Source: an uncultured Bacilli bacterium (lineage in GTDB: Bacteria; Bacillota_I; Bacilli_A; RF39; UBA660). From it: a DNA stretch of 64,000 nucleotides. Location of the stretch: contig CAJTZW010000001.1 of NCBI GenBank assembly GCA_910584305.1, positions 78,836 through 142,835 of the forward strand, in the 5' to 3' direction. The translations under genes and the position numbers were made by a program. Shown here in pieces: positions 40,611 to 57,184 of this stretch. Numbering within the stretch: the stretch's first letter is position 1; every line of letters begins with the position of its first letter. The notes under the pieces were generated by a model, which saw only the letters and a program-made list of their open reading frames with translations, searched no databases and was not told the origin of the DNA.

Positions 40611-40898
40611 ATGAATAACTATAAAATTGTTATAGATGCTGGTCATGGAGGAAGTGACCCAGGTGCAAGTGGTAATGGAATTGTTGAGAAGGACTTAACC
40701 TTGAAAATTTCTCAGTATATGTATGATCGTTTTAAAGAATTGGGTATTCCAGTTACAATGACTAGAACAACAGATGAAACTGTAGACCCTACTGAACGTG
40801 TGAATCGTATTTTAAATGCTTATGGAAATCGTAGTGATGTGATTGTTATAAGTAATCACATAAATGCAGGAGGTCGTGGGTTTAGTTACCATTGTTAG
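40611..40898 (+). pseudogene. N-terminal fragment of an Amidase_3-LysM N-acetylmuramoyl-L-alanine amidase gene, interrupted by an integrated element (the last ~8 codons derive from the element)
   Basis: It reads MNNYKIVIDAGHGGSDPGA...ISNHINAGG, then runs into element sequence and stops. The C-terminal half resumes at 56075. Confidence 0.7.
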
Positions 40899-41027
40899 AT
40901 TTAATTGGGTATTTAGACGACTGTATTTAAACGAAATAGTTGATAGATAATTTATTGAAGTGGTTAGAGTAGTGTTTATTTAGAAAATAAATGCTATTTT
41001 TTTAGAGTTGAAATTAAACTAATTAAA

Positions 41028-41171
41028 ATTTACAAAACACCAATCAAAAGTCAAAAATAACATAGGTGTTTTATAAAAAAAGTGTTTACTTTATATTTGA
41101 TTAATGATATACTAAAATTGATTTACAAAACGCCTAACAAAAATTAAAAATAATATAGGTATTTTGTAAAA
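41028..41171 (+). promoter_or_regulatory. two ~51-bp imperfect direct repeats, each holding an inverted repeat, bracketing a TTTACT-17-TATACT promoter (41085-41113). This is a candidate AbiEi autoregulatory operator
   Basis: Repeat 1 is ATTTACAAAACACC...GGTGTTTTATAAAA (41028-41078). Repeat 2 is ATTTACAAAACGCC...AGGTATTTTGTAAAA (41121-41171). Confidence 0.45.
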
Positions 41172-41182
41172 GGAGGTAAAAT

Positions 41183-41725
41183 ATGATTTATTCAGGAAAG
41201 GAAGCATTAGAAAAATATGGAACAAGATATAATTTATCTAAAGCATTAAAGAATAAAGAAATATTTAAATTAGAACATGGTATATATTCTGACAAAGATT
41301 TAGTAAATCCAATGATTATAGCTTCTAAAAAATATTCAAGTGCTATTATTACTATGGACTCTGCATTTTATTATTACGACTTAACTGATGTAATTCCTAA
41401 AAAAACTTATGTAGCAACAAATAGAAATTCAAATACTATAAATGATGAAAAAATTATTCAAATTAAAGTTCCAAAAGATATTTTAAATTATGGAAAAGAG
41501 GAAGTTATAGTAGATGGTGAAAAAGTTAAAATGTATAATAGGGAGAGACTGTTAGTTGAGTTAGTCAGAAAAAGAAATCAAATTCCTTTTGATTATTATA
41601 AAGAAATAATATCTAATTATAGAAAAATTGCAGATGATTTAGATATGTATAAAATTGAAGAATATTTAGCTTTATATAAAAATGAGGTTAATCTTGCAGA
41701 TGCATTGTTAAGGGAGGTTTTTTAG
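41183..41725 (+). CDS. AbiEi-like antitoxin/transcriptional regulator (type IV TA system, abortive infection)
   Basis: It is about 180 aa, it is immediately upstream of and overlaps an AbiEii-like nucleotidyltransferase gene, and the promoter has repeats. Confidence 0.5.
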   Translation: MIYSGKEALEKYGTRYNLSKALKNKEIFKLEHGIYSDKDLVNPMIIASKKYSSAIITMDSAFYYYDLTDVIPKKTYVATNRNSNTINDEKIIQIKVPKDILNYGKEEVIVDGEKVKMYNRERLLVELVRKRNQIPFDYYKEIISNYRKIADDLDMYKIEEYLALYKNEVNLADALLREVF

Positions 41726-54759: not shown

Positions 54760-54828
54760 GACTTCACTATTCAATTAGTGAGGTCTTTATCTTTCTTAGA
54801 TAAAAGTATATAATATATACCTAAGGAA

Positions 54829-56049
54829 GTGAGAGGTATGAATATTTTACAATTATGTGATGATTGTGACCAATCAACAAACTTTAGTGAAGTAGTTACG
54901 GAATTTTATCATAAAGTGGTTAATAAATATAAATTTTCAAATATTTCACTAATTTCTTATGATGCATTTATAATAACAGCAGATATTTTAGAAAAATATG
55001 AAAAAAATAAATCGTTTTTTCAAAAGATAGAAAATCAAAAAAAGCCAATAGTTTATATTTATCATGCCAATAATAAACCAGATGATATAGGAATGAAAAT
55101 ATTAGCAGATAGATATAAGTTAAAATTTAAATTTTCTGATTGTTCAATTTTAAACACACCTAATTGGAACTATAAACCTGAATGTTATTCTAACGAAGAG
55201 GAAGCATATTCAATGGCATCAACAACAGGAGATGGAACATGCTTTGTAAAAGGTACAAAACAATTCTACATTTATAGAAAAGGAAATGTAGTAATTATGC
55301 ACGACTTAGAAATTAGGTATGATAATCAAAATCAATTGGATAAATCTAGGTTAGCAAATATGATAAAATATATTTTACAAACTAATGAAGAAGAAAGTAA
55401 TGTTGGTGTTGATTGGTTGGACAACATAAAAATACTAGATGATGAAATATTAAAGGAAAAGTATAAAAAAAATATGGAACAACAAGAAAAAATAATCAAA
55501 GAACGTCGCGAATTAAATAAACTAATGGAAAGCAATAATTATTATAAATCATTATTATATTGCAGTGGAGACAAATTAGTTGAAGTAGTTGAGGATGTTT
55601 TAAAAGAAATGCTAAATACAGAAATAGAAGATAAGGACTTAAAAAAGCAAGATTTGTATTTAAAATTGGATGATAAGCATGTGTTAATAGAAATTAAAGG
55701 TGTTAACCATCCATTCCAAAGAGACAATATTAGTCAAGTAAAAAGACACATAAAAGATTATGCTGAGGAAAATCAAATATATGGAGCTGATGTTGATAAA
55801 TTATGTAAAGGTGTTTTAATTTTAAATCCATATAGTCTTCATGGCTTAAAAGATAAAATATCCAAAGACTTTTATAGTAAAGAAGTCATCGACGATGCAG
55901 AATATGAAAAAGTATGTACATTAGATACATTGACATTATTAAATTATTACTCAAGGTGGAAACAAAATTCTAAATCAATAAATTTGAAAGAAATATTACT
56001 GAATAGCAATTATAATGATCCTGATTATCAAGATATAATTAGTTTATAA
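54829..56049 (+). CDS. hypothetical protein (406 aa) between the recombinase and the right element end
   Basis: Long ORF. The C-terminal half contains D...EIK (LDDKHVLIEIKG), which could be a PD-(D/E)xK-like nuclease core. Confidence 0.4.
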   Translation: MRGMNILQLCDDCDQSTNFSEVVTEFYHKVVNKYKFSNISLISYDAFIITADILEKYEKNKSFFQKIENQKKPIVYIYHANNKPDDIGMKILADRYKLKFKFSDCSILNTPNWNYKPECYSNEEEAYSMASTTGDGTCFVKGTKQFYIYRKGNVVIMHDLEIRYDNQNQLDKSRLANMIKYILQTNEEESNVGVDWLDNIKILDDEILKEKYKKNMEQQEKIIKERRELNKLMESNNYYKSLLYCSGDKLVEVVEDVLKEMLNTEIEDKDLKKQDLYLKLDDKHVLIEIKGVNHPFQRDNISQVKRHIKDYAEENQIYGADVDKLCKGVLILNPYSLHGLKDKISKDFYSKEVIDDAEYEKVCTLDTLTLLNYYSRWKQNSKSINLKEILLNSNYNDPDYQDIISL

Positions 56050-56074
56050 ATGCAGTAATCAATGGGAGGGCTAA

Positions 56075-57184
56075 TCTTGTGGTGGCGATGGTGCTGAAGT
56101 AATCTATGCACTACGTAATAATAATAAACTTGCCGATTCTGTTTTAGAGGCACTGGGTAGAGCTGGTCAGGATATGCGCAAAGCGTATCAGAGAAGACTC
56201 CCAAGCGATACATCCAAAGATTATTATTTTATTCATAGAAATACTGGCAATACACAGCCTATTATTGTAGAGTATGGTTTCTTAGATAGTACTGGGAATG
56301 ATGTGAACCAACTTAAGAATAACTGGGAAGAACTTGCGGAGGCAGTTGTTGGTGCAGTTGTAAATTATATTGGAGGATCATATGCATCAATTTCAGGCAA
56401 TTACTATACAGTTAAATCGGGGGATAGTCTATGGAGCATAGCTAAACAATATGGTGTTACAGTGGATGAATTAAAACAGGCTAATAATTTAACTTCTAAT
56501 GCGTTATCTATTGGTCAAGTTTTAAAAATTCCTGTTGAAGAGGAAAATACATCATCAAGTTATATCGTAAAGGCAGGAGATAATTTATATGCGATTGCGC
56601 AAAAATATAATACAACAGTGGATGCGATTAAATCTTTGAATAATTTAACTACTAATACTTTACGTATAGGCCAAGTTTTACGTATTCCTGGTTTGTCAGT
56701 AGAAGAGCCATCTACAGAAGTTGATTATGTTAATTATACAGTTAAATCAGGGGATACATTGTATCAAATTGCTAGAAATTATGGTGTTAGTGTAGATACA
56801 ATTAAGCAATTTAATAATTTGACTTCTAATACATTGTCTATTGGTCAAGTTTTACGGATTCCTGTTGCTGTGGAACAAGAAATCATTGTAACTCCATATG
56901 CTGAGTATACTGTTAAACGCGGGGATACTTTATATAGTATAGCTAGAACTTATGGAACTACACAACAAGAAATTATGAATTTAAATAATCTTACTAGTAA
57001 TTTGCTTAGCATAGGACAGGTGCTTAAAATACCGACGTCTACTGGAGGTACTACTTATGTTGTAAAAAGTGGTGACAATCTCTATTCTATAGCTAGGGCT
57101 TATGGAACTACAGTTGCGGATATTATGAATAAGAATAATTTAACTAATACAACATTACAAATAGGTCAAGTACTTAAAATATAG
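56075..57184 (+). pseudogene. C-terminal part of the interrupted Amidase_3 N-acetylmuramoyl-L-alanine amidase: the amidase core C-half plus five LysM repeats
   Basis: In-frame it reads ...GGDGAEVIYALRNNNKLADSVLEALGRAG...PIIVEYGFLDS, the Amidase_3 C-half. Five repeats of the YxVKxGD(S/T)LxxIAxxYG...(I/L)GQVL(K/R)IP LysM type follow. Confidence 0.75.

Follow-up and report, generated by a model that had tools for sequence, protein, structure and literature searches.

How can a gene that is cut in two by 15 kb of foreign DNA keep both of its halves readable, and can the cut be undone? The question is raised by a 64,000-nucleotide stretch of an uncultured Bacilli genome (GenBank assembly GCA_910584305.1, contig CAJTZW010000001.1, positions 78,836 to 142,835; hereafter, the window), in which the gene of an Amidase_3-LysM cell-wall hydrolase is interrupted by an integrated element carrying a large serine recombinase (LSR) gene and a set of defence genes. 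A sequence-only reading of the window had proposed a split amidase gene with GGT at both junctions and an element of about 15.2 kb; both proposals were borne out, the insert measuring 15,209 bp. We regard it, with confidence somewhat better than even, as a skin/gin-like intervening element that is excised in the mother cell during spore formation. The two parts of the gene and the insert between them are as follows.

40611..40873, plus strand: amidase N-fragment, residues 1-88; its open reading frame (ORF) continues into the element to 40898
40874..56082, plus strand: integrated element, 15,209 bp; GC content 0.24-0.27, versus about 0.30 in the flanks
56083..57184, plus strand: amidase C-fragment, residues 89-454; rest of the Amidase_3 fold, then five LysM repeats

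The interruption was located between codons 88 and 89 of the amidase ORF, with GGT at the left (40872-40874) and the right (56081-56083) junction, and identity between the two junctions was limited to these 3 nt. The N-fragment ORF (40611-40898) starts with MNNYK and reads up to VISNHINAGG, after which it runs into an element-derived tail, RGFSYHC, and a stop codon. The C-fragment is in frame from 56075 on the same strand with SCGGDGAEVIYALRNNN (SCGGDGAEVIY...), contains the five LysM repeats and ends with the stop codon at 57184; its first in-frame start codon is that of M119. Fusion of the halves at GGT yielded a protein of 454 amino acids (aa) consisting of Amidase_3 and five LysM repeats, as had been predicted, and a single unbroken Pfam Amidase_3 match covered its residues 6-180 (profile positions 1-172 of 174). 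The fused protein starts directly with MNNYKIVIDAGHGG and has no signal peptide, and its C-terminal module is made of LysM repeats, not of a SPOR domain.

An alignment to solved amidases was used with knowledge of the family to assign the metal-ligand motifs to the N-fragment and the remaining fold to the C-fragment. The former contains GHGG, EKD and NHINA, which we take to be the zinc-ligand motifs of Amidase_3, and the latter the rest of the fold, presumably including the conserved glutamate of IVEYGFLD. Judged from this division, neither half should have activity alone; with the element in place, the zinc-ligand half is parted from the rest and no active amidase is possible.

The reconstructed protein was then compared with intact orthologues, as the sequence-only reading had suggested. 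Full-length orthologues of 455 aa are known that share 79-85% identity with it (the best, 85%), and the 20 residues spanning the junction, SNHINAGGGDGAEVIYALRN, were invariant and gapless in all unsplit orthologues aligned, down to 56% overall identity. An unsplit orthologue in GCA_965345015.1 lies in the same neighbourhood, with genes for a methyltransferase, CwlD, an Abi_2-like protein and HtrA. A common 3-nt core by itself would be expected at chance level; the restored amidase reading is far beyond chance. A further suggestion, that the element-side tail mimics the host reading frame, was contradicted: the right half-sites agree at 8 of 24 nt (P = 0.41 versus random 24-mers of the window), and the tails of other elements at the same site (GG and GGET, each followed by a stop, and GGGDSHCVTN...) are unrelated.

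To the recombinase and its attachment sites (att sites) the following features were assigned.

53098..54759, plus strand: LSR, 553 aa; Resolvase 13-164, Recombinase 188-307, Zn_ribbon_recom 321-379, C-terminal coiled-coil region
40848..40897, no strand: attL; crossover GG 40872-40873, host half-site B on the left, element half-site P' TCGTGGGTTTAGTTACCATTG on the right
56057..56106, no strand: attR; crossover GG 56081-56082, element half-site P CAATGGGAGGGCTAATCTTGT on the left, host half-site B' on the right
Reconstructed attB junction, 40-mer: TAATCACATAAATGCAGGAGGTGGCGATGGTGCTGAAGTA
Reconstructed attP junction, 40-mer: GGGAGGGCTAATCTTGTGGTCGTGGGTTTAGTTACCATTG

The LSR gene lies 1.3 kb from attR, and its product matched Pfam Resolvase (E = 2.8e-22), Recombinase (E = 1.3e-23) and Zn_ribbon_recom (E = 7e-10) as well as PHROG integrase (2e-102); by sequence, its closest solved relatives (PDB) are TnpX, TP901-1 Int and SprA. 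The predicted protein carries the full three-domain set of large serine recombinases, and the att sites show the imperfect dyad around a non-palindromic 2-bp crossover that is typical of this class. In the reconstructed attP, an outer inverted repeat, CAATGG...CCATTG, is centred exactly on the GG of the common GGT, with 11 of 24 symmetric positions, and the dyad symmetry of attB is weak (7/24). Because the common cores of the elements found at this site (GGT, AGGTG, GGTGGCGA, GG, AGG and others) intersect solely in GG, this dinucleotide is taken to be the crossover. These data identified the insert as an integrative element, not of phage origin, which the LSR mobilises and which entered through recombination of attP with attB at the GG between codons 88 and 89.

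As an alternative, a 10-nt direct repeat, ATAAATGCAG (40860-40869 and 56046-56055), was considered as the junction and rejected, since fusion there disrupts the reading frame. One copy of ATAAATGCAG lies in the host arm of attL and the other 26 nt inside the right end of the element, and this match may be a recombinase-binding sequence, not a relic of the junction. The outer part of the element's right arm contains TGCAGTAATC, a sequence that is also conserved in this arm of its closest relatives among the elements.

The same gene was found broken at the same place in many other genomes. In one relative, whose amidase is 82% identical, another element has split the gene at this position; its LSR shows 53% identity, and it carries DndB and a methyltransferase as cargo. 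LSR homologues with 74-88% identity all adjoin a LysM-bearing C-fragment. Among the LSRs of metagenome contigs with sufficient flank, all those of 47% identity or more adjoin an amidase gene broken at residues 84-88, and those of 38% or less do not. Altogether, this codon is occupied in other species by more than 40 independent related elements (7.5-15 kb where complete), and joining restored an open frame in all reconstructable cases. The N-fragment cluster comprised 71 distinct proteins (90-101 aa), and intact proteins numbered about 13, so that the split state is apparently commoner than the unsplit one in this genus-level group. All 37 distinct evaluable C-fragments (45-98% identity) were open, with no stop or frameshift. 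The earlier proposal of a precisely excisable element, not a dead pseudogene, thus stands in silico, on account of the intact LSR, the attP dyad on GG, the restored frames of the same-codon elements and the open C-fragments; excision itself was unobserved.

The amidase gene is also the target of a second LSR lineage (521 aa, 35% identical), whose elements enter its first LysM repeat between YTVKxGD and SLW; here, too, the frame is restored by joining. These elements are 7 kb long and carry AIPR with a DpnII-type restriction-modification (R-M) system (contigs L089, 13054-20324; L091; L132; L256, 10001-18112). L089 and L091 have an element at each of the two sites, which leaves the amidase gene in three parts. 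Numerous database proteins of about 210 aa contain Amidase_3 only and end at the second site, and these are probably fragments produced by second-site insertion.

When would such a gene be needed? The upstream region of the amidase gene and its spore-related neighbour gave the following features.

40567..40592, plus strand: sigma-K-type promoter of the amidase gene; AC 40567-40568, 15-nt spacer, CATACAATA 40584-40592
About 40599-40603, plus strand: ribosome-binding site (RBS) GGAGG of the amidase gene
57307..57775, minus strand: gene of a CwlJ/SleB-family hydrolase (Hydrolase_2), 141 aa, convergent neighbour; probable start 57732, box CATATACTA 57755-57747

The pattern AC-N15-17-CATAnnnTA followed by an RBS and an ORF occurred only once in the window, and this was in front of the amidase gene. 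CATAnnnTA was present within -45 to -8 of the amidase start in 57 of 69 orthologues, compared with 91 of 858 (10.6%) in the background, which consisted of the RBS-preceded ORFs of the same loci. With the upstream regions aligned on CATA, C was found at -17 in 52/61 and A at -18 in 39/61, with A or C flanking both, and the G of sigma-A TTGACA in only 7/61. Sigma-E and sigma-K have a common -10 element, and their -35 elements are ATA and AC, respectively (PMC3789822). Since AC at -18/-17 and the CATA -10 match the sigma-K consensus, the amidase promoter was assigned to the sigma-K pattern. The AC is specific to the amidase, because the CwlJ-like neighbour gene has a CATA box (39/46 orthologues) and rarely a C at -17 (8/39). 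The promoter is retained in split copies (the window and L095).

In B. subtilis the mother cell is lysed by sigma-K-controlled amidases, and candidates are present in C. difficile (PMC3789822). The spore genes of the present host are those for CwlD, the CwlJ/SleB-family hydrolase and CotZ, and the promoter and this neighbourhood suggest that the amidase gene may be a mother-cell sporulation gene. For the CwlJ-like gene itself, a mechanically called Hydrolase_2 ORF of 182 aa (57307-57883) overlaps the tRNA-Trp gene at 57810-57883 (plus strand), and the true start is probably the ATG at 57732, which gives 141 aa, the commonest length in its cluster. An Rfam scan over 38000-59000 returned nothing but this tRNA-Trp, in the flank.

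Directly upstream of the LSR gene, the element has a second conserved unit.

52898-52906, plus strand: CATA box CATAAATTT, upstream of a small ORF
52911-52916, plus strand: RBS AGGTGG of the small ORF
52924-53025, plus strand: 33-aa small ORF MEEAITNKISFKDLILKYLIEEIIKEEKGDSSN, candidate recombination directionality factor; no family match
53030..53058, plus strand: sigma-A-like promoter of the LSR gene (TTGCAA, 17 nt, TGnTATCAT), between the small ORF and the LSR gene

Upstream of every LSR subfamily in the clade we found a small ORF (27-46 aa) with a CATAnnnT box, and its peptide core, F-K-[DE]-L-I-L-x-Y-L-I-E-E-I, was kept along with the box upstream of LSRs that are 47-100% identical; the LSR and this small ORF are the only genes conserved throughout the family. 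Equivalent sigma-A-like sites precede the LSR gene in other elements. The arrangement of small ORF and sigma-A-like LSR promoter parallels that of SPbeta and C. difficile skin, and the 33-aa ORF is a candidate recombination directionality factor. In the non-prophage gin element, this function belongs to the 42-aa GirX, which is frequently unannotated (PMC5595907). A mini-ORF, MINVRKNINNK, with the RBS AAAGGAG, is situated at 52856-52891, just upstream of the small-ORF CATA box, and a similarly placed ATATGTATGA(A/T)AAAAA start was seen in related elements.

The reading that we favour, excision in the mother cell, would proceed in the following steps. The LSR would be made from its own sigma-A-like promoter and, alone, would keep the element integrated. 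In the sporulating mother cell, the CATA-box promoter would turn on the 33-aa ORF, and its product would serve as the recombination directionality factor. Together, the LSR and this factor would recombine attL with attR, releasing a 15.2-kb circle and rebuilding the 454-aa frame, which would then be expressed by sigma-K RNA polymerase. The amidase, read in the mother cell from its sigma-K-type promoter, would have a function analogous to that of CwlC or be a lytic enzyme associated with the coat or cortex. The forespore chromosome would retain the element, such that its cargo (AbiE, Fic/PDC-S72 and type I R-M) is inherited free of cost to the host. The invariant attB, which codes for NAGGGDGAE, would admit the same recombinase module to many species and permit horizontal spread. 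In keeping with this reading, all 24 contigs read for this species carried the split gene and the LSR, and no full-length copy from the species was found, the best full-length database match being 85% identical.

Several observations weigh against this scheme. The small-ORF box has no resolvable -35 element, in a region too AT-rich to separate sigma-E from sigma-K, and the 33-aa ORF matches no family. The amidase promoter of the window also matches sigma-A (TAGACA-16-TACAAT, 10/12), overlapping the sigma-K-type site. That the host sporulates is deduced from three genes only. Nor was an excision product detected: the empty site of this species was absent from the protein collections, the exact fused 454-aa protein was absent from about 15 billion sequences in an exact look-up, and the attP circle junction was not found in IMG/VR. 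Assemblies reveal the majority state only. A junction-spanning query of 132 aa gave no match from this species, and it carries no weight because it returned only proteins of 231 aa or less and missed known 93%-identical orthologues.

The remaining contrary evidence concerns mobility, and it also speaks for the strongest alternative, in which an ordinary mobile defence island uses the conserved NAGGGDGAE-coding stretch as a landing site, an amidase dispensable in the gut is lost, and excision is a rare event that serves transfer or replacement. In four contigs (L092-L095), the LSR and its upstream module (9700-11671) were compared at the DNA level and proved to be 98.3-99.9% identical across hosts whose amidases are 67-75% identical and whose flanks are unalignable, and the cargo differed, being type I R-M with a shufflon integrase or Hachiman with MutH and Dcm. 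This pattern indicates recent transfer between species and exchange of cargo; no transfer genes are present. Near-identical hosts also carry several different elements at the site. Given the near-identical LSR modules in diverged hosts and this turnover at the site, the elements transfer between species and replace each other; these comparisons show ordinary germ-line mobility, for which a developmental programme would be unneeded. Moreover, L092 has an unsplit 388-aa Amidase_3-LysM paralogue (13990-15156, minus strand) two genes downstream of its split copy. The nearly exclusive defence cargo and the failure of the exact protein look-up and the IMG/VR attP search to give direct evidence of excision fit this alternative as well.

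Nonetheless, we consider an ordinary island less likely than mother-cell excision. None of the 37 evaluable split copies has acquired a frameshift or a stop, the promoter is kept in split copies, and these seem commoner than intact genes. Two LSR lineages, unrelated to each other, have converged on this gene, which has a sigma-K-type promoter and a sporulation neighbourhood, and the conserved small ORF next to the LSR gene has a box of the mother-cell type in front of it.

A reversible on/off switch under another cue, for example stress, phage attack or an autolysin's phase variation at the population level, comparable to the 'active lysogeny' at Listeria comK, was judged quite improbable. An LSR with a directionality factor could in principle respond to any signal, and stress-responsive toxin-antitoxin and Fic genes are aboard; however, the amidase promoter and the small-ORF box are both of the mother-cell type, SOS-type or other regulatory sites were not recognised, and a non-replicating circle would be lost on division, whereas the assemblies always show an occupied site. 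The chance that the split arose as an artefact of assembly or chimera formation, or that the halves are unrelated genes, is negligible, as these junctions recur in no fewer than 24 independent contigs of the NCBI, ENA and Logan assemblies, the same architecture recurs in dozens of other species, and unsplit orthologues align over the junction without a gap.

What does the element carry? The remaining genes and repeats, from left to right, are listed below; families were assigned by Pfam, PADLOC and PHROG scans.

41015-41078 and 41108-41171, plus strand: two 64-nt direct repeats, 78% identical, upstream of abiEi
41183-41725, plus strand: AbiEi antitoxin (PADLOC E = 4e-64)
41725-42552, plus strand: AbiEii nucleotidyltransferase toxin (PADLOC E = 7e-101; Pfam AbiEii)
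42564-42824, plus strand: DUF6429 protein
43010-43264, plus strand: 84-aa ORF, no family match
43292-44851, plus strand: 519-aa ORF, no family match
45082..45930, plus strand: Fic-domain protein (Pfam Fic; candidate defence family PDC-S72, PADLOC E = 1e-80)
46128-47624, plus strand: HsdM (PADLOC MTase_I)
47608-48777, plus strand: HsdS (PADLOC Specificity_I)
48808-49650, plus strand: 280-aa ORF between hsdS and hsdR, no family match
49655-52693, plus strand: HsdR (domains from precomputed Pfam matches on the same-species locus L083)
54829..56049, plus strand: 406-aa ORF between the recombinase gene and attR, no family match; position not conserved in other elements

AbiE, PDC-S72/Fic and type I R-M are clustered in the element, which therefore qualifies as a defence island. 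Each 64-nt repeat contains an inverted repeat of 15-16 nt, TTTACAAAACRCC...GGTRTTTTRTAAA, and the pair probably represents AbiEi operators. ORFs of 208-280 aa occur between hsdS and hsdR or beside hsdM (48808-49650 in the window; L089, 4075-5379; L092, 4448-5104), and such ORFs in type I R-M operons, for which no family match was obtained, may be accessory defence genes.

The cargo of relatives was surveyed by a Pfam scan of 105 non-redundant proteins of at least 238 aa from 29 related elements. It included type I, II and IV R-M, AIPR, Hachiman, and MutH with Dcm, and R-M, AIPR, Hachiman and MutH/Dcm dominated in the 29 elements. No phage genes were found in the element of the window, whose ORFs of no known family had no PHROG match. 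A prophage or defective prophage was ruled out on these grounds, together with the absence of phage families among the top Pfam families of the relatives' cargo. Two of the 80 best LSR matches in IMG/VR fell into the clade of this element, and the one examined (L176) was host DNA with a split amidase. Conjugation genes (relaxase, coupling protein, type IV secretion) were absent from the element of the window, in which oriT was not searched for, and from the 25 most frequent Pfam families of the surveyed cargo.

Outside the element, the region directly upstream of the amidase gene (37985-40433) contains a 555-aa ORF without a family match and a class B sortase gene, the ORF product being a possible substrate of sortase B. 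In a relative with an unsplit amidase gene (L002), a GrpB gene takes the place of this ORF and the sortase gene, and the left flank thus differs between relatives.

How does the locus compare with known systems? The structural features of the skin/SPbeta/gin class, namely gene interruption, an own recombinase and precise in-frame reconstitution, are all present, the reconstitution in silico. The closest system is gin in gerE of Bacillus cereus ATCC 10987, a non-prophage element with an R-M system, the GirC recombinase and GirX that leaves the chromosome during sporulation (PMC5595907). Both elements combine R-M with a serine recombinase and split a coding sequence that can be precisely restored, that of a late mother-cell gene in gin and of a predicted one here, and the factor of gin is likewise tiny and often unannotated. 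In contrast, gin interrupts a transcription factor gene, has three recombinases and is 28.6 kb long, whereas here an Amidase_3-LysM hydrolase gene is interrupted by 15 kb with a single recombinase; excision and the factor were shown by experiment for gin and are inferred here. The present host is an uncultured low-GC gut bacterium, and the element belongs to a large, horizontally mobile family with exchangeable defence cargo.

After gin, skin and SPbeta are the nearest. The skin elements in sigK, which depend on SpoIVCA in B. subtilis and on CD1231 with the factor CD1234 in C. difficile (PMC5025042), similarly have an LSR at one end, and the gene in which they lie is a mother-cell gene, as is predicted for the amidase gene. 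Skin is excised in the mother cell only, and its directionality in C. difficile comes from a small factor under mother-cell control. Skin differs in being a defective prophage in a sigma-factor gene, and its recombinases are only distantly related to the present LSR. SPbeta in spsM uses SprA/SprB, a constitutive integrase with a small sporulation-induced directionality factor (PMC4191935, PMC5499854). It is both horizontally mobile and developmentally excised, but it is a 134-kb active phage, unlike the phage-gene-free element described here.

As to the target, CwlC and CwlH of B. subtilis and CD1898 and CD2184 of C. difficile are sigma-K-dependent mother-cell amidases (PMC3789822). The split-gene product resembles the CwlC type in its Amidase_3 domain, its peptidoglycan-binding C terminus, the lack of a signal peptide and the sigma-K-type promoter, and differs from it in having five LysM repeats instead of SPOR; it is not a CwlC orthologue. 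By analogy, it may act like CwlC or as a coat- or cortex-associated germination enzyme. We found no published report of an amidase gene as the target of such an element. Cyanobacterial heterocyst elements in nifD, fdxN and hupL mostly use tyrosine recombinases (XisA, XisC). As is proposed here, these site-specific recombinase elements interrupt genes that serve only a terminally differentiated cell and are excised there, in another phylum and another cell type.

This family gains interest, beyond what is known of gene-interrupting elements, from its defence cargo, its horizontal spread and a second target site. A broader picture, which we hold tentatively and at slightly less than even confidence, is that of widespread, currently mobile, recombinase-borne defence cassettes of uncultured gut Bacilli instead of single domesticated remnants; the cassettes would be carried free of charge in a gene of the disposable mother cell, with a 27-46-aa peptide under a mother-cell promoter as the excision switch, cargo swapped between species, two unrelated LSR lineages converged on the gene, and a three-piece gene that would need two excisions.

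If the developmental reading is true, a cell-wall hydrolase gene would join sigK, spsM, gerE, spoVFB, spoVR and yabG as genes rebuilt by excision, and the phenomenon would extend to an uncultured gut lineage. It would also be linked to anti-phage defence, in that a gene used by the mother cell only would provide a cost-free dock for exchangeable islands. Annotation of the amidase halves as pseudogenes is unwarranted, and the family offers many natural sets of LSR, attB and attP, with a defined GG crossover and with a small ORF as the candidate for a minimal directionality factor, and these sets may find use in genome engineering.

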